This document shows, in pieces, positions 7,150 through 63,676 of a stretch of DNA of 64,000 bases. Origin of the DNA: Lachnospirales bacterium (lineage in GTDB: Bacteria > Bacillota > Clostridia > Lachnospirales > CAMZNU01); assembly GCA_047974615.1 (NCBI GenBank), contig JBKECM010000082.1, forward strand, positions 30,488 to 94,487, read 5' to 3'. Within the stretch, counting starts at the first letter, position 1, and the number at the start of each line of letters is the position of its first letter. Below the pieces are notes generated by a model. The model was not told the DNA's origin. It searched no databases and saw only the letters and a list, made by a program, of their open reading frames with translations. The position numbers and the translations under genes are program-made.

Positions 7150-7659
7150 ATGAACAAAACAAAATTTAAAAGAAATATTAACAACGATATCGTTGCATCG
7201 CATCACAGAATTAAACTACAACACTCCGGAGGAAAAGTTAATCAAATCGATTCAAAGGTTTGCTATGTAAGTTTTATGGTTGGAGATATTGAAGTAGAAT
7301 ATGTGTATAACATTAATCATCACGATATGTTTTTCATAGAGCGTATTAAGCCATATCCTGAACCTTTTGATACATTTAATGATGAAAAAGCCGTAGTTGA
7401 TCAGATTTTAGATGATGTTGAAAGATTTAAAAAAGCTAATAAATCTAAAAATATTGAGGAATTTATAGATATAAATAAATCTCTAAGTCAATTAATCAAA
7501 AATTTTGAAGATTTATATCTTTATTATAATGTTCCAAAAAAAGATGCAGACGATATTTATGAAAAGGTTGAAAATCTTGTTGAAATAGTATATAATATAA
7601 AGAATAACTCTGAAAGGGTATATTTTGATAGCGAACCTAAATCATTTGATAATGATTAG
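7150..7659 (+). CDS. Hypothetical protein
   Basis: 169-aa ORF with strong RBS TAAGGAGG and typical codon usage. No domain recognised. Confidence 0.6.
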   Translation: MNKTKFKRNINNDIVASHHRIKLQHSGGKVNQIDSKVCYVSFMVGDIEVEYVYNINHHDMFFIERIKPYPEPFDTFNDEKAVVDQILDDVERFKKANKSKNIEEFIDINKSLSQLIKNFEDLYLYYNVPKKDADDIYEKVENLVEIVYNIKNNSERVYFDSEPKSFDND

Positions 7660-9425: not shown

Positions 9426-10535
9426 TTAATAAGTAAAAGTTGAAATTTTATCGTATAAATCTTCTAATTTAATGCTTTCAACTAGTTCATCTGTTCCATA
9501 ATCGTAAGTGTTAAATATTATATCAACTTCATTTATATCTAATTCGTTATATGTATAATAACCGTAAATTGCAGCATATAGAGATGGATAAACGTATGGA
9601 ATAGTTTCATCATAAAATGCATTATCGATATAGATATTTAACTCTGTATAAGTATCATTTACTTCGATTGAGTATAGGTTTGAAAGCTCTGTTAAATTTT
9701 GCATTGTTGATTTTGCATTATCAAGTTGATATTTATACAATTCACCAATGAAAAAACTAAATGTACGTGGTAAAGTAATATCAAAAGTTGTGTCATTATA
9801 TGCTACATCAATGTTGTATGTTTCAAATAAAGATAAGTCACTTGAAAAGTATTCAAGGAGTTCATATGGATAACTTACTGTTGTGAAAAAGTTTTCATAA
9901 CTAAATGTATTAATTATTTCACCGGAATTGTTATCTATAATTACTAGATTACTTGTTATTTCATCAAGTGGAACATCAGTGTAAATTTGGTAGCAAACAC
10001 TATTTAAAATAAAACTTTCAAACTCTACAAAGAGTGCATATGAAAATGAGTCATCAACAAAAAAATTAAAGTCAGTATAGTCTTCGTTTGCAGTAACATC
10101 TGTAAAAGTTTTATACTCTGTTTTTAGTGTTTCAATATAGTCGAGAATTGAAGCTTCGATTTGTTCGCTCATATCAAGTGCTTCGGAAACAGGAATCTCA
10201 TATACTGCTGAATTATTATCCATTATCTCTGGCATATATTCTCCAAGAGCTAAAGTATCAGCAATAAGCATATTATTTTCGTCAAAATATGATACTTCAG
10301 TCGCCATATAGTCAAGAATTTGCCAGTACTTTTCGGGAAACTCATAACTTTTAATTTCACCACTATCTTCGGTAGTTTCATTTTCTGTTACTTCGTTTTC
10401 AGTAGTTTCATTTTCAGTTTCTGTATTTTCTACTGGATTTGTGTCTGTAGTTGTTGTATCCGTCGTTGCTTCGTTACTTGTACATGAGCTAAGAGCAAAA
10501 GTAAGTAACATAATATTAAATATTTTCTTTTTCAT
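9426..10535 (-). CDS. Lipoprotein, function unknown
   Basis: Signal peptide with lipobox LSSC, acidic T/E/N-rich linker (TETENETTENEVTENETTED). No domain recognised. Confidence 0.7.
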   Translation of the reverse strand: MKKKIFNIMLLTFALSSCTSNEATTDTTTTDTNPVENTETENETTENEVTENETTEDSGEIKSYEFPEKYWQILDYMATEVSYFDENNMLIADTLALGEYMPEIMDNNSAVYEIPVSEALDMSEQIEASILDYIETLKTEYKTFTDVTANEDYTDFNFFVDDSFSYALFVEFESFILNSVCYQIYTDVPLDEITSNLVIIDNNSGEIINTFSYENFFTTVSYPYELLEYFSSDLSLFETYNIDVAYNDTTFDITLPRTFSFFIGELYKYQLDNAKSTMQNLTELSNLYSIEVNDTYTELNIYIDNAFYDETIPYVYPSLYAAIYGYYTYNELDINEVDIIFNTYDYGTDELVESIKLEDLYDKISTFTY

Positions 10536-18371: not shown

Positions 18372-18537
18372 TGGCATTGCCCCAAATATACTAGTATTTT
18401 AGTGAAAAATTAGAAGGGTTTTCCGAAGAAAACTACTGTGAAAAAAATCATCTTTTAGCCATTTTTAGCCTTTTTCACATTTTGCGTTTTAGATTTATAT
18501 ATAAATCTTGGCATAATTGCATTTTACAATGATGCCA
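18372..18537. repeat. Diverged F1-related repeat copy (F1-G)
   Basis: Ends in CATTTTACAATGATGCCA (15/18 match to the F1 terminal repeat). The last ~75 nt are homologous to 46008-46082. The left boundary is uncertain and may extend to TGGTAATGCC at 18297. Confidence 0.55.
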
Positions 18538-27241: not shown

Positions 27242-27276
27242 AAAAGTGATGATGATTTTTTCATTATCACTTTTTT
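27242..27276 (+). terminator. Intrinsic terminator after the BMP lipoprotein gene
   Basis: AGTGATGATGA / TCATTATCACT stem (one G-U pair), T5 loop, T-run. Confidence 0.75.
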
Positions 27277-27279
27277 ATT

Positions 27280-27453
27280 TGGCAACGTTGCAAAATTCAA
27301 GAAATGGCACATTGCAAAAGGAAAAATCAAATTTTCATATTTTTGACAAACGCCTGAAATGGCAAAAAAAGCCATTTCTACAGTTTTTGTCAAAAATCGC
27401 AAAGCCGTTATTTTTCTGTGAAAATGGATTTTCTATATTTTGCAATGAAGCCA
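27280..27453 (+). mobile_element. F1 miniature inverted-repeat element, copy A (174 bp, lacks module 2)
   Basis: Starts TGGCAACGTTGCAAAAT and ends ATTTTGCAATGAAGCCA. Near-identical to the reverse complement of 50709-50941 apart from a ~50-nt internal gap. Begins 3 nt after the terminator. Confidence 0.8.
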
Positions 27454-27508
27454 TTTGGTTTAATCAACAAAAAATGGTATAAGGTAACGTTACCTATAGA
27501 TAAAAAAA

Positions 27509-27550
27509 TAGCTTATAGTGTACCTTAAGTACGCTATAAGCTATTTTTTA
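27509..27550. terminator. Bidirectional intrinsic terminator
   Basis: A-run, AGCTTATAGTGTAC / GTACGCTATAAGCT stem (one wobble), T-run. Lies between convergent genes. Confidence 0.75.
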
Positions 27551-27599
27551 GCAATTCATAGAAAATATCATATTTTGCTATGACGTCATATGGTAAATA

Positions 27600-28931
27600 T
27601 TATAATAATAAATATAGATTTTCAGGAGTAATTTCTCCTATTTCTGAAAAAATTATCCAATCATTTATAAAGTTATAAGAAAATTCTACAACTTCACCAC
27701 TGTTAAGTTCTTCAATGTATATAGGTTCAGACATAAGTTCGCCTTTTATTGTTTTTTTGTCCGTATTTTTAATAAATTTAAACCATAGATTTTCATTTGT
27801 TCTATCTATTGTAACTTTATCTTCATCTATAGGGAAAGCTGCTTTTATTCTACCCTCTAAAATTTGAAGTTCGGGATTTTTTAAATTTTTAACGAATTTT
27901 TTTAAATTTGAAACAACTTCTTGTTTTTCGATAATTTTTACGAATAAATCGAAAAATTCCCTTGCCATAGTATTTTTACGTTCTTTTTCAATTAAACTTT
28001 CTGTAAAGGTTGGTTCAACTAAAAAAGGAACTAATTCAGATAATTCTTTTGTTTTATGTTCTATATAAGCAAATGCTGTTAAATAATAATGATGCAAATT
28101 TTTTCTGTCATCACTGTTTGTTCCAATAATTCCGCGATATTTCTTTATCGCATCGCTAGAGTTATGCAATGATAGGTATATGTTTTCGCCAAGATAAATA
28201 GGCATACCTTCTTTTGGCATTCTATGTTCTACGAGGTTAGAAACTAGATATGGTAATAAAATGGAACATATTTGATAGTTTTCTAAATTTAGATTTAAAA
28301 ATTCTATATCATATATATTGCATCGTCTTAAACCTTCGGTATAAATCCACGTATTAGCCATATTATCATTAACAATATGCAAGTTGTACATATAAGATGT
28401 ATTTGGTGGTACTGAGGCGATTGCCATATTGTTTAGCCATTTTCCAGAAAAAAGAGCACGTGAAGAACAGTCTGCTAATGCACAAACTTCACCAAATAGG
28501 GTATTTACAAGTTTTAATTGAAAGAGATAAGATTTACATATATTTTCATTAAACATAATTTCAGTAACTACGCCCATAGAATTTTCTAAGGCACTCATTT
28601 CTTCCTTAGAAAGATATGTTCTTTGTAAATAATCATCTTTAACAAAATCCTTAAAATATAGTTTTACAGAATATAAGGATCCTCTAAACTCAATATTTAC
28701 CTTTCTAATGGTTTCAGAAACATATGTTTCTGTATGAAAAATAAATTCTTTAGAGTTTTTTATACTTAATATAATTTCATCAAGTACTAAATTTAAAAAA
28801 ACTATATTATCAAAGCTTTTTGTTTTTACCATCGTTTCAAGAATTTCACTTGATGCAAGGTTATAAGGTATAGCCATCATATATGAAGGTACTTGTAATA
28901 AATTTGGGTTATTTAAATTATTATTTTTCAT
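27600..28931 (-). CDS. Hypothetical protein, DUF4026-like N-terminal region and DUF2314-like C-terminus (tentative)
   Basis: 443-aa ORF, RBS GAGGTGA. Motifs TWIYTEGLRRCNIYDIEFLNL and C-terminal ENLWFKF..GELMSEPIYIEELNSGEVVEF..INDW resemble those families from memory only. Confidence 0.4.
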   Translation of the reverse strand: MKNNNLNNPNLLQVPSYMMAIPYNLASSEILETMVKTKSFDNIVFLNLVLDEIILSIKNSKEFIFHTETYVSETIRKVNIEFRGSLYSVKLYFKDFVKDDYLQRTYLSKEEMSALENSMGVVTEIMFNENICKSYLFQLKLVNTLFGEVCALADCSSRALFSGKWLNNMAIASVPPNTSYMYNLHIVNDNMANTWIYTEGLRRCNIYDIEFLNLNLENYQICSILLPYLVSNLVEHRMPKEGMPIYLGENIYLSLHNSSDAIKKYRGIIGTNSDDRKNLHHYYLTAFAYIEHKTKELSELVPFLVEPTFTESLIEKERKNTMAREFFDLFVKIIEKQEVVSNLKKFVKNLKNPELQILEGRIKAAFPIDEDKVTIDRTNENLWFKFIKNTDKKTIKGELMSEPIYIEELNSGEVVEFSYNFINDWIIFSEIGEITPENLYLLL

Positions 28932-29542: not shown

Positions 29543-29576
29543 CTGGTATAGACAGTTTTATGATAAATTTTCTAAT

Positions 29577-29762
29577 TGGCAACGTTGTAAAATTCAATAA
29601 ATGGCACATCGCAAAAGAAAAAATTAAATTTACATGTGTTTGTCAAAAGTCGCAAAGCCATTGTTTTGTAAAGAACCCGACGAACAAGGGCGACGAAGTC
29701 GTTTTCACGTAGTGAAAATTCCGATTTTAAAATGGATTTTTCTATATTTTGCAATGAAGCCA
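29577..29762 (+). mobile_element. F1 miniature inverted-repeat element, copy B (186 bp, lacks module 1)
   Basis: TGGCAACGTTGTAAAAT ... ATTTTGCAATGAAGCCA. Carries the GC-rich module 2 (29677-29723). Same orientation as copy A. Confidence 0.8.
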
Positions 29763-29891
29763 ATTATAAACATCAATAAAAAATGCAGTAAAGAAAAATT
29801 CTTTTAAATATTGACATTATTTGATATTTGTTTTAAAATTTTTATATATAATACATTAAAAAATTTTGTGTGAATTTAAGTGAGGGGAAGA

Positions 29892-32659: not shown

Positions 32660-33044
32660 AGTGTCGAAAAAGTTAACAAAGTAAAAAAATATGGGGGGTT
32701 TTGAAGAAAACGGGAAATTGCATAAAAAACAGAAAAAAATATAGTGGTATCAGTGCAAAATGCAACGTTGTGTAGTAACGAGGAGAATTTTCAATTAGAA
32801 AATGAAAATTTTTTAAGAATCTTCAAAGAAGTGCGACCTTAGGAACAAGCAAAACAACGATTTTGCGTTAAGTGAGTAAGGAAAAAGTCAAATGACCTTT
32901 CCTCAGTTATGGCTTTCGCCGTAATTTTCGGAAGATTAGCCATCACCTAAGACTACGCTTAGTGGCGAGGCTAATCTGTATGATTGAAATTATCTTATTG
33001 AGAAACTCCCAAATTAATTTTTTTCTAACCCTTTTCAGCACTTT
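32660..33044 (+). mobile_element. F2 element, long composite copy (F2-c, ~385 bp) carrying nested repeats
   Basis: The left end AGTGTCGAAAAAGTTAACAAAGTAAAAAAATAT and right end AATTAATTTTTTTCTAACCCTTTTCAGCACTTT match the two F2-a ends. Contains the mini F1 copy (32745-32773) and module X (32934-32978). Confidence 0.6.
32745..32773 (-). repeat. Miniature (ends-only) F1 copy E nested in F2-c
   Basis: TGGTATCAGTGCAAAATGCAACGTTGTGT aligns with copy D (TGGCTTCATTGCAAAAGGCAACGTTACCA) at about 21 of 29 positions. Confidence 0.55.
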
Positions 33045-42150: not shown

Positions 42151-43791
42151 ATGAAGAAATTTAAAAAAGGATTATCCGTGTTACTTGTTTTAGCTGTATC
42201 AGCAGCTACTATTACAGCATGTGGCAGTAGCAATGAAAGTGCTACTGGTGATGATGAATGGAATTTACCTGAACCGACATTCACAGTTGATGCAAATACA
42301 CCAAGTTGGAAAATTGATGACAGTACAGCTGATATTGATTGGTATATGGGATTTGACTGGTTTACTCCTGGTCAACAAGATTCCGTTGCTATGAATTATC
42401 TTAAAGAAGATACTGGAGTAAACATTACGTATCAAAGTGGTGGGAATGATAAAATAAATTCCTTAATCGCTGCTAACAACTTACCTGATGTTATTACAGT
42501 AAATGAAGGTGATGCATCATTAATTGCCGATTTAGAAAAGGTTGCTATACCAATTGAGGTTCTTTCAGAAAAATATGACCCATATTTTATGAGTACAGTT
42601 GCTGACCCAGAAATAGTTAAATTTTATCAAAATGCAGATGGACATCTTTATATGTATCCAAACTATGCAATTCCACCATCAGACTATGAAAATGGTGGCG
42701 TATATGGAAATGAAGCTTTTCTTGTAAGAAAAGATATTTATGAAGCTATAGGTTCCCCAGATATGAGTACTCCAGAAGGGTTTTTAGATGCCCTTGCTAA
42801 AGCACAAGAGTTAGGTGAAACAGATGGTACTGGTAAAGAAGTAATTCCTTTTGGTATCAATCATATTGAACCAAATAATATAGGCACTGATGTTTCTTTA
42901 GCAAATATGTTAGGTATTCCAACTACTGAAGATGGCAAAATTATTGATAGATATACAGATCCTGACTTTGTATCTTGGATGAAAGTTTTTGCAGAAGCTA
43001 ATCGTGAAGGTTATATGGATCCTGACGTTATTACATTGGTTGATGCAGATAGACAAGCTAGAATAACAAATGGTTCATATTTTGCATATTTAAACTCAAA
43101 TCTTAATGCAGACCCATATACACTTACTAGCTGGTATAACCAAGATTCTTCTAAAGCATATATTGCAGTTGATGGACCAGCATCTTTAGTTGGTAATCCT
43201 GTAACATATTCAGGACCAAATTTAACAGGATGGACTCGTACTTTTGTTTCAAAAACTTGTAGTAATCCACAGAAAGTAATGGAAGTTATTACTTATCTTT
43301 CTTCTGAAGAAGGTGCTTTAGCTGTATATTTTGGTAGAGAAGGTGTAGATTACACAATGGAAGGTGAAAAAGCAGTACCAAACCAAGAAATTACAGATTT
43401 ATATAATTCTGATCCTGGTGCTTATCAAATTAAATATGGTTTTGGTGAAATTTACCAATTCAATAATACTTCATTTACTTCAATTTTATATGGTGTTGAA
43501 CAATTTGGTTTAGGTCTTCAACAACCAAAACAATTCACAGTAGATTATATTGTTTCAGATAATTCTGTTTTTGAAAAGGATAAATATTTATCTTCTGAGG
43601 AACAACGTAATAATGAAAGAATTAAAACACAATGGTTCCAAACTTTTTCAAAAATGATAACAGCTAGTGATGATGCAGAAGTTGATAGTTTAATGCAAGA
43701 GTATGTTGATTTTAGAGATGCAAATGGATATGCTGAAATCGAAACTGCACAAAATAAAGCAATAGCTGAAAATATTGAAAAATTAAAATAG
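42151..43791 (+). CDS. Extracellular solute-binding lipoprotein (LplA-like, large family-1 SBP)
   Basis: Lipobox ITAC, 546 aa. Context with the LplB/LplC-like permeases. Confidence 0.8.
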   Translation: MKKFKKGLSVLLVLAVSAATITACGSSNESATGDDEWNLPEPTFTVDANTPSWKIDDSTADIDWYMGFDWFTPGQQDSVAMNYLKEDTGVNITYQSGGNDKINSLIAANNLPDVITVNEGDASLIADLEKVAIPIEVLSEKYDPYFMSTVADPEIVKFYQNADGHLYMYPNYAIPPSDYENGGVYGNEAFLVRKDIYEAIGSPDMSTPEGFLDALAKAQELGETDGTGKEVIPFGINHIEPNNIGTDVSLANMLGIPTTEDGKIIDRYTDPDFVSWMKVFAEANREGYMDPDVITLVDADRQARITNGSYFAYLNSNLNADPYTLTSWYNQDSSKAYIAVDGPASLVGNPVTYSGPNLTGWTRTFVSKTCSNPQKVMEVITYLSSEEGALAVYFGREGVDYTMEGEKAVPNQEITDLYNSDPGAYQIKYGFGEIYQFNNTSFTSILYGVEQFGLGLQQPKQFTVDYIVSDNSVFEKDKYLSSEEQRNNERIKTQWFQTFSKMITASDDAEVDSLMQEYVDFRDANGYAEIETAQNKAIAENIEKLK

Positions 43792-43861: not shown

Positions 43862-44443
43862 ATGTTTAGTATAGATGGTAAATTATATGGTATTTTAGTA
43901 ACTATAATGAACTTAGTTATTTTGGATTTATTGCTCATAGTGACTTTTATACCTATATTTACAATACCTATAGGTATATTATTTGTATGTCAAGGTTGTA
44001 TTAATATTTTGCAAGATAAAAAATTTAATTATGGTTTCAAATTTAGCAAAAAGATTTATATTAGATTATTGTCACTTACTGTTTTGACTGTATGCTCAAT
44101 TTTGACTATTTTAACTTTGTTTTCACCAAATAATATTTTTCCAGGCTATATACTAATTTCAATAATAATTTCTTTTTTAGTAGTATCATACATTATGATT
44201 TTACTTTATTCTGACAATTTACTACTTTTATTTAAAAGTGCTTTTTATTATACTTTAATATTTTTTTACAAGACTGTAGTACCTATTTTTTTATTATTAA
44301 TAGTTTTTACACACCCATTAAGTTTTGGTATGTTTATGACAATGTTAGTTATACCAATAATTTATCTTTATGTATTTATACGTATTAATTTTAACGGTAT
44401 TTCAGAAATAAAATGGCTTACGAAAAATGAAGAATTACTATAA
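43862..44443 (+). CDS. YesL/DUF624-family membrane protein
   Basis: 193 aa, N-terminal block LVTIMNLVILDLLLIVTFIPIFTIPIG. Usual position after Lpl-type ABC genes. Confidence 0.55.
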   Translation: MFSIDGKLYGILVTIMNLVILDLLLIVTFIPIFTIPIGILFVCQGCINILQDKKFNYGFKFSKKIYIRLLSLTVLTVCSILTILTLFSPNNIFPGYILISIIISFLVVSYIMILLYSDNLLLLFKSAFYYTLIFFYKTVVPIFLLLIVFTHPLSFGMFMTMLVIPIIYLYVFIRINFNGISEIKWLTKNEELL

Positions 44444-45941: not shown

Positions 45942-45995
45942 CTATACTATACTTTTATACAATTAAACTAATAGTAGTTAAACAATCATTGAAGA

Positions 45996-46082
45996 TTTGA
46001 GGCGTTTCAGAAAATGTTACATTTTGGTGATTTTAGATTTGCTACGCAAATCATAACATAATTGCATTTTGTAATGATGCCA
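45996..46082. repeat. Truncated F1-related repeat copy (F1-H)
   Basis: GAGGCGTTTCAGAAAATG.. aligns with CAGGCGTTTGTCAAAAGT.. of F1-C. Ends in CATTTTGTAATGATGCCA. Hairpin GATTTGC-TAC-GCAAATC. Abuts the RBS of the MFS gene. Confidence 0.55.
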
Positions 46083-50654: not shown

Positions 50655-50705
50655 AAATAACCTATTGTGGTTTCTATTTATTTTACCGCAGTAGGTTATT
50701 TTGTT
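50655..50705 (+). terminator. Intrinsic terminator after eda
   Basis: 16-bp stem AAATAACCTATTGTGG / CCGCAGTAGGTTATTT (two G-U pairs), 15-nt loop, T-rich tail. Confidence 0.65.
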
Positions 50706-50708
50706 ATA

Positions 50709-50941
50709 TGGCTTCATTGCAAAATATAGAAAAATCCATTTTCATATCGGAATTTTCACTACGTGAAAACGACTTCGTCGCCCTTGTTCGTCGGATTCTT
50801 TACAAAACAATGGCTTTGTGGCTTTTGACAAAAACTGTGGAAATGGCGTCTTTTTTTGCCATTTCAGGCGTTTGTCAAAAGTATGATAATTTGATTTTTT
50901 CTTTTGCAATGTGCCATTTCTTGAATTTTGCAACGTTGCCA
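50709..50941 (-). mobile_element. F1 miniature inverted-repeat element, full-length copy C (233 bp)
   Basis: TGGCTTCATTGCAAAAT ... ATTTTGCAACGTTGCCA. Reverse complement of copies A and B, and contains both internal modules (50748-50794 and 50823-50880). Confidence 0.85.
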
Positions 50942-50961
50942 TATTGTTTGATAAGTTTATT

Positions 50962-53900
50962 TTAAATTTCTTCTAAGTGTAGTACACCATATCCATAAAA
51001 ATTATTAGGATATTGAAAGTTTTTTTCTCTTATTGCGTTTTTACGCAAGATTTTGCGTATTTCTTTTACTCCGTAATTGGGGTGCTTTTCTAGAATAAGA
51101 GCTATTAAACCTATAGTTAGGGCAACTCCCATTGATGTACCAGATATTTTTTCTATGTCATATAGACCGTAGGCATCTATATCAACAGAAGGAGAGGTAA
51201 TATCTATTTGCCTAAAAGTACTGTATTCTGTAGCACCACTAGCTTTGTAAAATGTACTAAGGTATATATCATAGCCAGATACAGAAATTAAATTATTTAT
51301 AGTACCGGGTATTGTTATTGAACCTAAAATTTTTGATGAATAAAAAGTTGTATTTTCAGTAGATAGGGGAAGCACAGGTAAATAAAATTCACAGCTTGCA
51401 GAAATGTTCAGTGGTACAAGTTCGATATACCAAATTCCTTTTATGAAGCCATCTAGCCCTATTTCTATTTCTGTTTTTTGATTTGTATTATTAAAATTTA
51501 TAGTGATGTTATAATCAAAAGTTTCTTTATAGTATGTGTTATTTTCTGTTAGATTAAAACTTAATTCTTCAAAATTTCTGTTACCTATGGTAAGTAAAAA
51601 TTTTGCATTTTTTTGTGTGTATATACTAATTTTTGTTTGAGGGTCATCAATATTTAGATATGTCATATTTTTTTCATTTATTATAGCCTTTGTTGTAGTG
51701 TGCTTTTTTGATAAACATTCATTACCTGTAGGTGCGACAATGATACAATTTTCATTTTTACTTATGTCTGCAAGTATTTTTTCAAAAGCACAAAGTTCAT
51801 TGTGCGAACCTTCATTTGAACTTAAGGGTATACCTATAATCATAGGTAAATTGTATTTTTTTTGTACTGATATTAAATAGGCTAAAGCTTTAAGAATATC
51901 TATTGAAGAAATACCGTAAAGTTCTGCATTTATAAAGCTTGATTTTTTATTTGTAGATGTTGTATCTGAAACTTTAGCACATATAATTTTTGATTTTGGT
52001 GCAATACCTTGAAAATTGTCTTGAAAATTACCACTTGCTACGGAAAATGAGTTTGTTCCATGTCCTATTGTATCAAAATCTTTTAAATCTTCATCAATTA
52101 CTTTTTGAATATCTTGTTTAAAGTATATTTTGTTTTCTGTAACATCATATATTTCTTCTACTCTTGTGTTGCCTTCGGTCATAAAAATACTATTTTTTAC
52201 GCATATTCCTGTATCTATAAAAGATATTATAACATTTTCTCCATAAAGGTTTTGGTTTTTATAAATTTTTGTTGCACCTATAAATTCTGAAACTTCATAA
52301 TTTGAGAGAGCAAAAATCTTTACTTTTTCAAAAAAAATTTTTTCTTTATATAGAAAATTTTGAAAATCTGTTATATATAAATAATTTACATCTACTATTA
52401 TATAATTAAATAAAATTTCTTTTACTATAAAGTCAACTATGCCTTCTAAAGTAGCTAAAAAACCGTTATCATCTTTCACTAAATATTCTACATATTCTTT
52501 TTCGCTTTCAACTAATGTAACTAGTTCTTCATAACAAACAAAACCAAAACCATATGCTATATTTGGATAGTCTATGTTTTTTAACTTTGTTGCACTTTTC
52601 TCAAGTAAAGATTTTATCTCTATAGAAGTGTAATTTGGATTTTTCTCAAATATTAAAGATACAATACCAGCTACTATAGGAGCTGCAAAACTTGTGCCTG
52701 TTTTATAGCTATAGCCATATACACTATCTGCACACCTAATATTTACACCCGGTGCTGCTACATTTGGTTTAATTTCATCTAAAACAGTATTGCCTAAACC
52801 TGAAAAGGTGGCAATAGATTGATTTTGTCCATCATAAGCGGAAACAGTAATAGCTTTTTTACTTGTTGAAGGGAAGGTAATAGTGTTTTCAATGTCACTA
52901 CTGCTAAAATACGTATCATATCCTACAGATTCTAAGATAGGTAAATATAAGTGTATTTTTTCATTGACTTTTCTTATATTCAAACTTAGTAGTACTATAG
53001 AATTTCTTGCTTCTTTATATATTATTTTTATATTAAAAGTGTTATAAATATCAGAAAGTAATTCACCGTATGAAACATAATACTCAACTTCATCTTCGAT
53101 AATGTGTTCAACACCTGTATTTTGCTTAAAAGTTCTTGAAACATATCCATTATCAAATTCTATGAAAAAATCTATTGTGCTATCACTTGGTACAAAAATA
53201 AAAATACTAAATTCTTGCACATTGCTTACAATTTCTATTCTATCTGAAGTTGTTGCTATTTTATGATGTCCTGAGTCACCTTCGTTACCGGCTGCTATTG
53301 TTATACCTATTTTTTTGTAGTTTACTATTTCGTCAAGATAATTTTCGAACAAAGTAAGACCACTATGGCTTGCGTTATTGCCACCCATACTAATATTAAT
53401 TGAGAGTGGTTTATTAAGAGATTTTGAAACTTCTCTTAAAAAATATATACCCTTTAATACTTCAAAAGATTTAGTATTTGAATTACTAATTTTTACTACA
53501 CATATATCTGATTTTGGTGCTACACCTGTGTTACCTGCACAAATAGAGGTTACAGAAGTACCATGACCAACTGTGTCAAGATGTCCTAGGGGTGTATTAT
53601 TGCTTAAGGATAAGTTAATGTCTTCTTCTGTATATAGTTTTCCGGTGCTTATTCCAAAGCCACCTGTTCCTTCTTGTGAAAAGTCTAGTATATATTTTAT
53701 TCTTGTTGTACCATCTGTATTTTTAAATTCTTGGTGGAAAATATCTATACCACTGTCAATTACTCCAATAACAGTATTCATACCTGTTTCTTCATAGTCT
53801 GTTAGGCAAGCATATTCCTTGTAGTTATCTGCTACACTTGCGTATTCTTCTTGATAAAATTCTATTTCATATGCAAGTTCTTGTGACAATATTTCAGCTG

Positions 53901-54129
53901 TATTTATAACATTAAAATAGTTAGTATAGTTACAGGTTATTATTGCATAATTACTACCTATTATTTCTACCATACCAAATTTTTTTAATGTGTTTTCTAT
54001 ATCTCCTAAGTATTTTACTAAAATAACAATTTCAAAATTGTTTAGGTAGTTTGAAATTACTGTTCTATCGTTATTTTTTATTGCATAATCAACTTGGTAA
54101 GAAAAAATATTATTCAATTTATTTTCCAA
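50962..54129 (-). CDS. Fused two-domain Csp-like subtilisin (S8) protease, CspBA-like
   Basis: Two tandem S8 units, each with a YAIIT-type propeptide. Residues are numbered on the 1080-aa track ORF. Triads: D150/H214/S505 (IDSG, GHGT, GTSFAAP) and D664/H715/S1024 (IDTG, GHGT, GTSMG). No signal peptide. Start placed at TTG 54129, 6 nt after GAGGTG; track codons 1-25 run into a repeat. Confidence 0.7.
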   Translation of the reverse strand: MENKLNNIFSYQVDYAIKNNDRTVISNYLNNFEIVILVKYLGDIENTLKKFGMVEIIGSNYAIITCNYTNYFNVINTAEILSQELAYEIEFYQEEYASVADNYKEYACLTDYEETGMNTVIGVIDSGIDIFHQEFKNTDGTTRIKYILDFSQEGTGGFGISTGKLYTEEDINLSLSNNTPLGHLDTVGHGTSVTSICAGNTGVAPKSDICVVKISNSNTKSFEVLKGIYFLREVSKSLNKPLSINISMGGNNASHSGLTLFENYLDEIVNYKKIGITIAAGNEGDSGHHKIATTSDRIEIVSNVQEFSIFIFVPSDSTIDFFIEFDNGYVSRTFKQNTGVEHIIEDEVEYYVSYGELLSDIYNTFNIKIIYKEARNSIVLLSLNIRKVNEKIHLYLPILESVGYDTYFSSSDIENTITFPSTSKKAITVSAYDGQNQSIATFSGLGNTVLDEIKPNVAAPGVNIRCADSVYGYSYKTGTSFAAPIVAGIVSLIFEKNPNYTSIEIKSLLEKSATKLKNIDYPNIAYGFGFVCYEELVTLVESEKEYVEYLVKDDNGFLATLEGIVDFIVKEILFNYIIVDVNYLYITDFQNFLYKEKIFFEKVKIFALSNYEVSEFIGATKIYKNQNLYGENVIISFIDTGICVKNSIFMTEGNTRVEEIYDVTENKIYFKQDIQKVIDEDLKDFDTIGHGTNSFSVASGNFQDNFQGIAPKSKIICAKVSDTTSTNKKSSFINAELYGISSIDILKALAYLISVQKKYNLPMIIGIPLSSNEGSHNELCAFEKILADISKNENCIIVAPTGNECLSKKHTTTKAIINEKNMTYLNIDDPQTKISIYTQKNAKFLLTIGNRNFEELSFNLTENNTYYKETFDYNITINFNNTNQKTEIEIGLDGFIKGIWYIELVPLNISASCEFYLPVLPLSTENTTFYSSKILGSITIPGTINNLISVSGYDIYLSTFYKASGATEYSTFRQIDITSPSVDIDAYGLYDIEKISGTSMGVALTIGLIALILEKHPNYGVKEIRKILRKNAIREKNFQYPNNFYGYGVLHLEEI

Positions 54130-54151
54130 AAAAATCACCTCACATAATATT

Positions 54152-54344
54152 GAGGGTGCTGAAAAAGTCAAAAAAGAAAAAAATATTACTAATGACAATG
54201 GCACAAAAATAGTGAGATAGCATAAAATCAGCGAGAAACGAGTGCTAATTTTATGCTACATGCAAGATGATTTGCAAAGCAAATCATCAAGTCGAGCGTA
54301 ATTTTTGTGAAGTAATATTTTTTTCTATCCTTTATCAGCACCCT
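54152..54344. mobile_element. F2 miniature inverted-repeat element (F2-a, 193 bp) flanked by a 10-bp direct repeat
   Basis: Imperfect ~38-nt terminal inverted repeats GAGGGTGCTGAAAAAGTCAAAAAAGAAAAAAATATTACT / AGTAATATTTTTTTCTATCCTTTATCAGCACCCT. Internal perfect hairpins TAGCATAAAAT..ATTTTATGCTA and GATGATTTGC-AAA-GCAAATCATC. ACATAATATT occurs at 54142-54151 and 54345-54354. Confidence 0.8.
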
Positions 54345-63613: not shown

Positions 63614-63642
63614 TGGCTTCATTGCAAAAGGCAACGTTACCA
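63614..63642 (-). repeat. Miniature (ends-only) F1 copy D
   Basis: TGGCTTCATTGCAAAA directly joined to GGCAACGTTACCA, i.e. both F1 terminal repeats with no interior. Lies between the htpG stop and its terminator. Confidence 0.7.
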
Positions 63643-63644
63643 AA

Positions 63645-63676
63645 TAAAAAAGCAGACAATAGGTTGTCTGCTTTTT
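63645..63676. terminator. Bidirectional intrinsic terminator
   Basis: A-run, GCAGACAA-TAGG-TTGTCTGC, T-run. Lies between convergent genes. Confidence 0.85.

Follow-up and report, generated by a model that had tools for sequence, protein, structure and literature searches.

The window, i.e. the whole 64-kb stretch of DNA that was analysed, has a GC content of 28.7% and contains, between eda and a convergent protease gene, the fullest copy (copy C) of a repeat family which is referred to as F1. On the eda side, copy C is preceded by a terminator-like hairpin that is bidirectional (AATAACCTATTGTGG...CCGCAGTAGGTTATT, 50655–50701), and on its other side it is followed by the stop codon of the protease gene. 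This hairpin yields sub-threshold Rfam microRNA hits. The protease gene (50962–54204, minus strand) ends 21 nt from the element, and the bottom strand of copy C is the sense strand of this gene; its product is a subtilisin-like protein of 1080 amino acids, which is only distantly similar to the clostridial germination protease CspBA (290 bits in comparison to a cutoff of 1250).

An open reading frame of 85 codons (50708–50965) spans the whole of copy C, and its ATG arises from a base of the duplication together with the GG at the start of copy C. The frame starting at the left end of F1 is shifted or stopped in most copies, which rules out that F1 is a coding mini-gene. This ORF is an annotation trap and not a gene, and is an example of the spurious ORFs which these repeats create.

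Structure of the repeat and its copies in the window

Copy C is composed of a left arm, module 2, module 1, a subterminal right arm and a tail, in this order (Table 1). An alignment of 14 and then of 16 copies placed the limits of the element at GGC...GCC. An earlier note on this DNA had drawn them one base too far out on each side; the T and the A which it had counted as terminal are part of the duplication. The ends of F1 are imperfect 16-bp terminal inverted repeats starting with GGC (GGCTTCATTGCAAAAT and GGCAACGTTGCAAAAT), which are identical in 13 of 16 positions. In the copies of a second genome (the MAG described below) the right tip is usually TTTCT and not TTGCC, and the two ends therefore match poorly in their outermost positions. 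The presence of terminal inverted repeats had been recognized correctly, but the left end pairs best with the subterminal TTTTGCAATGTGCC (50902–50915), in which the subterminal right arm of copy C ends, and not with the terminal repeat. As the left arm pairs with the subterminal arm and not with the tail, the right end bears two copies of the core CRTTGCAAAA, 25 nt apart, and the left end one. The GCAACGTTGC palindrome was also considered as an operator of a LacI-type regulator; this was rejected, because all four of its occurrences lie inside repeat copies and none is promoter-specific.

Module 2 contains the stem-loops TTTTCAC-TAC-GTGAAAA and CGAC-TTC-GTCG. As proposed before, it is present in copy C and in copy B (29670–29724) and absent from copy A; it is likewise absent from 12/12 MAG copies. 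Module 1, whose inner stem (GGAAATGGC/GCCATTTC) covers positions 50839–50865, was found as expected in C and A (27340–27396) and additionally in seven MAG copies. Its supposed absence from B was largely confirmed, with one outer arm being kept. The module is missing from the 27-nt forms and from the MAG copies L027a, L030a, L032b, L034b and L037a.

Table 1. Positions of the repeat copies and their parts in the window
Feature	Position	Strand	Remarks
F2, decayed copy	18372–18537	+	right end is a 27-nt palindrome (18510–18536); identity of 83% with MAG copy L028 6931–7103 over 95 nt
F1 copy A, 172 bp	27281–27452	-	with module 1, without module 2; E = 2.1e-47
Duplication of A, AAAT	27277–27280 and 27453–27456		read on the minus strand
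F2-like fragment	27478–27580	+	abuts copy A; 79 nt match the interior of MAG copy L028b at 78% identity
F1 copy B, 184 bp	29578–29761	-	with module 2, most of module 1 deleted; E = 5.6e-27
Duplication of B, AATT	29574–29577 and 29762–29765		
F1, degenerate ends-only copy, 27 nt	32746–32772	+	exact duplication TAGT/TAGT (32742–32745, 32773–32776)
F2, truncated copy	45996–46082	+	ends in the palindromic unit 46055–46081
Left duplication of C, ATAT	50706–50709		
F1 copy C, 231 bp, 36% GC	50710–50940	+	fullest form; nhmmer E = 2.5e-49
Left terminal inverted repeat of C, GGCTTCATTGCAAAAT	50710–50725	+	first 16 nt of the left arm
Left arm of C, 37 nt	50710–50746	+	starts with GGCTTCATTGCAAAAT; conserved in nearly all copies
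Module 2 of C	50747–50801	+	55-nt insert, 45% GC
Module 1 of C, nested hairpin	50822–50881	+	outer stem CTTTTGACAAA/TTTGTCAAAAG
Subterminal right arm of C	50882–50915	+	inverted copy of the 37-nt left arm
Tail of C, 25 nt	50916–50940	+	carries the right terminal inverted repeat
Right terminal inverted repeat of C, ATTTTGCAACGTTGCC	50925–50940	+	contains the GCAACGTTGC palindrome
Right duplication of C, ATAT	50941–50944		
F1, ends-only copy, 27 nt	63615–63641	+	15 nt of left repeat and 12 nt of right repeat

Copies A, B and C, which are 85–93% identical, lie where they had been located before. In a BLAST search of copy C against the window, B showed 95% identity over positions 1–127 and 93% over positions 180–233 of C, and A showed 97% over positions 1–36 and 91% over positions 96–233. 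A and C differ at about 7–9 positions per 100 nt, which is somewhat more than the few positions estimated earlier. The motif TGGCWWCRTTGCAAAA (up to two mismatches) occurred 11 times at seven sites of the window in comparison to 0.57 expected occurrences, and none of 100 shuffled sequences reached 11. The proposal of a modular, MITE-like family bounded by terminal inverted repeats is supported.

A family HMM was built from 12 copies, and the window was scanned with nhmmer. Strong scores (E < 1e-26) were obtained for A, B and C only; weak scores (E = 0.04, 0.9 and 2.5) were obtained for 18428–18537, for 45995–46082 and for the 63614 ends-only copy, respectively. The earlier count of seven or more sites applies to the terminal motif, but not to long F1 copies, of which there are only three. 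The clear members of F1 in the window are these three and two 27-nt ends-only copies; the other sites, two of which had been included in that count, represent a sister subfamily (F2) sharing the terminal repeats. One of the ends-only copies, assigned before to 63614–63642, is exact; it lies 14 nt past the htpG stop codon and is flanked by ATAT/AAAT (3/4 bases identical).

Copies A and B have the same orientation and are 2.1 kb apart, and the segment between them holds the genes of a tautomerase and of a DUF4026/DUF2314 protein (443 amino acids, 27600–28931, minus strand), which is not a transposase. Copy B itself is located between the divergent genes of the tautomerase and a ROK regulator. 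A composite transposon consisting of A and B is ruled out, because each copy has its own duplication and both must have inserted independently. All 19 copies from the window and the MAG are intergenic, several of them 0–5 nt from a stop codon, and the adjoining genes are unrelated housekeeping genes.

The members of F2 are the two copies listed in Table 1 and the MAG copy L028 6931–7103. At one end they carry the right-type repeat of F1 and at the other a 27-nt near-perfect palindrome of two left-type halves (GGCATMATTGCATTTTRCAATGATGCC), which is preceded by a TTAGATTTATRTATAAATCT hairpin. The segments 18428–18537 and 45995–46082 have mainly the terminal repeat unit in common with F1. The truncated copy immediately precedes the ribosome-binding site of a gene for an MFS transporter. 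The F2-like fragment contains a perfect 14-bp palindrome (AGGTAACGTTACCT, 27482–27495) and a GTACCTTAAGTAC hairpin; its position directly beside copy A indicates that repeats of the two subfamilies cluster.

Target-site duplication and occurrence in a second genome

F1 is flanked by an AT-rich target-site duplication of 4 bp with the consensus AWWT. It is exact in 9 of the 16 copies (ATAT three times, AAAT twice, and AATT, ATTT, TAAT and TAGT once each) and is identical in three of four bases in five more, a count that was never attained in 100,000 permutations. Crossed pairs of left and right flanks were exact in 9.6%. The duplications of the MAG copies are AAAT, ATTT, TAAT, ATAT and ATAT. 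The two-base identities beside A (TT), B (AT) and C (TA) noticed earlier are real and became longer in the larger sample, but their size had been taken too small, as they represent the middle of the 4-bp direct repeat. The central dinucleotides of the duplications are TA, AA, AT, TT and AG. A 2-bp duplication is superseded as a model, since it needs two unexplained target preferences, both of which are explained directly by the 4-bp model.

Matches of 5 bp between the flanks were found in none of the 16 copies. An 8-bp duplication was suggested by matches of 8 and 7 nt in L027b and L030b, but over the extra 6 nt the own pairs were no better than crossed pairs (P = 0.29), and the additional similarity results from the 4-bp duplication together with the conserved right tip. 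In L030b and in the copy at 32746–32772 a T instead of an A is found beside the right end, and the matching base of the left flank is also a T; this fits a direct duplication and not an inverted repeat.

The exact 19-nt left end was searched in 185,579 species-representative genomes and gave relevant hits, six in number, in a single MAG, Lachnospirales bacterium VLC_061 (JBKEBX01); all of these hits (6/6) belong to short copies. In the six corresponding 8-kb loci (48 kb) 12 copies of 75–175 bp were identified, which have the same ends and the same left and right arms and possess variable interiors. Further copies outside the window, as expected from the earlier note, thus exist. The identities amount to 79–93% among the MAG copies and to 75–90% between the genomes. 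An additional, independent sign of repetition in the source genome is that short-read unitigs of the same organism in Logan (SRR30067259, SRR30067261; L001, L002 and L058) break off within the repeats, after 25 nt of copy C and after about 100 nt of copy B.

Only chance matches were obtained in a JGI metagenome collection (19-nt left end) and in viral collections (three patterns), and no copy occurs in 54 kb from the nearest relatives, whose Eda proteins are 69–75% identical to that of the window. A search for empty sites or presence–absence polymorphism by means of Eda homologues and flanking proteins could show none, as no relative is close enough; those with Eda identities of 69–75% have no alignable intergenic DNA. 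With identities of 75–93% between its copies, F1 is not demonstrably active at present.

In the sampled DNA, a copy of F1 occurs roughly every 8–20 kb, which would extrapolate to an order of a hundred or more copies per genome. These repeats break short-read assemblies of this lineage.

Nature of the family and alternative explanations

F1 is a previously undescribed family of small, gene-less MITEs which occurs in the organism of the window, an uncultured low-GC member of the Clostridia, and in one related genome. A full-text search for the end sequences revealed no paper containing them, and no MITE of this group of Clostridia was described in the literature searched. In Rfam, no match at the gathering score was obtained in the window, and a permissive threshold gave sub-threshold hits at chance level only; BLAST searches of plasmids with copy C and the ends-only consensus gave nothing meaningful. 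The statement that F1 belongs to no named family can therefore be maintained.

The generic definition of MITEs was taken from the literature (PMC3049150, PMC3184786). The copies of F1 have a size of 27–231 bp (limit for MITEs about 300 bp) and no coding capacity, carry the terminal inverted repeats and the duplication of fixed length described above, and are dispersed in intergenic DNA (the 64 kb of the window hold seven sites and one fragment, and the 48 kb from the second genome hold 12 copies). They also show strong base pairing, with z-scores of the foldback of -5.1 as DNA and -4.4 as RNA. Single-sequence and consensus folds agree in that the left arm (50710–50746) pairs with the subterminal arm and forms a long foldback (alignment columns 1–37 paired with 175–208 in the consensus), and the tail, i.e. 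the last 25 nt, remains separate. The occurrence of the same non-coding interior at unrelated loci indicates that the short form itself has multiplied. The ends, the duplication and the multiplicity of the copies are direct observations. Because terminal inverted repeats, a duplication of fixed length, small size without a conserved ORF, dispersal in two genomes and multiplication of the short form coincide, F1 most probably consists of non-autonomous DNA transposons which moved by a cut-or-copy-and-paste process; we assign a probability of about 0.8 to this reading.

The hairpin of module 1 deserves separate consideration. In eight copies, 85.7% of the alignment cells were paired in comparison to 38–54% with slid partners, and four pairs change on both sides; pair 22–47 was seen as GC, AU, UA and GU and pair 29–40 as C-G or U-G. 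Some compensatory change in the hairpin arms, which the earlier note had asked for, is present, but with eight related sequences this is suggestive and weak. On the bottom strand the inner hairpin of module 1 is followed by a T run, which scored as terminator-like in copy A. It might be concluded that F1 is a family of structured RNAs or terminators functioning in the host, whose hairpins are kept for terminating or stabilizing transcripts or as small RNAs and for which transposition is at most historical. The compensatory change, the tolerated G-U pairs and the many copies just after stop codons would agree with this, as would both tandem-gene contexts (L032a and L037b), in which the upstream gene reads into that end which gives the hairpin in the terminator sense. 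However, copy B, five MAG copies and the 27-nt forms have ends and duplications without module 1, and the hairpin is therefore not needed for spread; moreover, the genes on either side of B, L028a and L030a are divergent and require no terminator between them, and no Rfam family matches. As such a function leaves the terminal repeats and the duplications unexplained and could only be a secondary layer over a MITE, it is very unlikely to be the primary nature of F1. Co-option of individual copies as terminators is nevertheless plausible.

Even less probable is a mosaic resembling REP or BIME sequences, in which a short palindrome of two half-sites is the basic unit and linker modules separate the units, in which spread is due either to a RAYT-type single-strand (HUH) transposase or to recombination, and in which the identity of the flanks reflects a target preference. 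Units consisting of half-sites only indeed occur alone (63615–63641, 32746–32772) and as ends of F2 copies, the F2 units fold as good hairpins (-7.2 and -11.8 kcal/mol), and the modules are combined in a mosaic manner. The 4-bp direct repeats are, however, specific for each copy and do not represent a common motif (own pairs exact in 9/16 copies, crossed pairs in 9.6%), the ends-only unit at 63615 folds no better than shuffled sequences (z = -0.4), no window ORF gave a hit to Y1/RAYT or another transposase, and F1 elements are AT-rich instead of being GC-rich stem-loops. Stable palindromes without duplication and with a Y1 transposase, which characterize REP sequences and REPINs with RAYT, were accordingly not found in F1. 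We regard as least probable of all that each copy is an independent internal deletion of a resident insertion sequence and not a mobile miniature element. The varying size of the interiors and the fact that no partner IS was seen would be in line with such decay, but one and the same non-coding interior of left arm, hairpin and right arm recurs, at 75–93% identity, at loci of the two genomes which are unrelated to each other; the same junctions would not recur by independent deletions, and the short form must have multiplied.

Related elements and the putative transposase

As a MITE, F1 is an ordinary kind of element and opens no new kind of biology. Correia elements duplicate a TA dinucleotide, and members of the IS630 family also make TA duplications. 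ISL3 elements make duplications of 8 bp, and IS5-group and IS701-type elements make duplications of 4 bp and have ends starting with GG or GA (ISfinder family table); IS5 itself targets YTAR. An origin from IS630/Tc1-mariner elements, as for MITEs of the RUP or Correia type, was rejected, since the duplications of F1 comprise 4 bp and not TA. The ISL3-like flavour ascribed to the ends by the earlier note does not stand either, and an ISL3-derived element was rejected, because the duplications are 4 bp instead of 8 bp long.

Correia elements (CREE/NEMIS) of Neisseria resemble F1 in being abundant intergenic MITE-like elements with terminal inverted repeats, variable interiors, a strong foldback and no identified partner transposase; they differ in the TA duplication in comparison to AWWT, and sequences and host phylum are unrelated. 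In F1, moreover, the repeat motif is doubled, at one end only. The internal sequences of Correia elements reach up to 156 bp and are delimited by 26-bp inverted repeats (PMC3049150). RUP of Streptococcus pneumoniae is like F1 an AT-rich MITE of Firmicutes of roughly 100 bp with terminal inverted repeats, target duplications and an RNA foldback; its mobilization in trans is attributed to IS630-Spn1 (PMC3049150). In F1 the test for TA failed, there is no candidate partner and no sequence similarity to RUP. The BOX element of S. pneumoniae is modular, too, with conserved end modules, optional internal modules, inverted-repeat ends and target duplications; between boxA and boxC, its boxB is repeated in tandem with a varying number of units (PMC3049150). 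The analogy to BOX elements drawn in the earlier note is appropriate for the presence or absence of modules, but the modules of F1 are single and tandem repetition was not seen.

The IS6/IS26 family has a 14-bp terminal repeat with GG at positions 1–2 and G at position 7 and is characterized by 8-bp duplications and formation of cointegrates (PMC6807381). The IS26 repeat GGCACTGTTGCAAA and the right repeat of F1 (GGCAACGTTGCAAA) are identical in 12 of 14 positions, including the GG and the G at position 7, and IS1216 has the terminal repeat GGTTCTGTTGCAAAGTT (PMC7864471, PMC2920175, PMC6807381). The left repeat of F1, in contrast, has an A at position 7. Ends of the type GG..TTG.AA also occur in other families, for example in IS903D (GGTTTTGTTGAATAAATC; PMC7864471), and the similarity to IS6/IS26 is therefore not diagnostic. 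The flanks speak against an IS6/IS26-derived element, since no copy has an 8-bp match there and the duplication is 4 bp long.

Among the ORFs of the window there was no hit to transposase or integrase families, in agreement with the earlier note. An autonomous element with F1 ends was found neither in the 64-kb window nor in the 48 kb of MAG sequence, beside the MAG copies or among the matches in the collections. Four ORFs of the window (9426–10535 on the minus strand, 7150–7659, 42151–43791 and 43862–44443) gave no Pfam hit at the thresholds applied, and no repeat motif or repeat end is located near them. The 4-bp duplication argues against partners from the ISL3, IS6/IS26 and IS630 families. 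IS5-group or IS701-like enzymes fit best to a roughly palindromic, AT-rich 4-bp duplication and to ends starting with GG; this follows from the ISfinder family table and is a lead only, and the AWWT of F1 differs from the YTAR of IS5.

Presumably, the CRTTGCAAAA core would be bound by a DDE-type transposase whose gene lies at another place in the genome, and this enzyme would join the ends of F1 in trans to an AT-rich target (AWWT) which is cut with a 4-bp stagger. The interior would be dispensable, as 15 + 12 nt of the ends are all that remains in the smallest copies. The longer copies differ from each other by insertions or deletions, namely of the 55-nt GC-richer module and the nested hairpin of roughly 60 nt, and a full copy is a long foldback, since next to the right tail, on its inner side, the 37-nt left arm recurs in inverted form. 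Persistence in intergenic DNA, often only a few bases from stop codons, is probably due to the tolerance of insertions there, and some copies may have been recruited by the host as terminators or RNA-stability elements. A transposase-bearing partner would carry GGCTTCATTGCAAAAT...TTTTGCAACGTTGCC ends, and the ends of F1 provide an exact query for the responsible enzyme. It appears unlikely that this partner belongs to an uncatalogued transposase lineage with IS6-like GGC..TTGCAAA ends, a 4-bp AWWT duplication and substrates down to 27 bp, and/or that the host has co-opted the foldbacks as terminators or RNA-stability elements throughout the genome.

With F1, the Clostridia gain a MITE which is well delimited: its ends are defined, its duplication is 4 bp long (AWWT), its minimal form comprises 27 bp, and its modules are optional. 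As its copies adjoin stop codons and promoters, they may alter expression there. The 11 nt past the right end of copy A (27270–27280, minus strand) and past the ends-only copy (63642–63652) are identical (AAATAAAAAAG) and are followed by different terminator hairpins at the two sites; this could be due to chance, to a preference for A-tracts before terminators or to shared ancestry.
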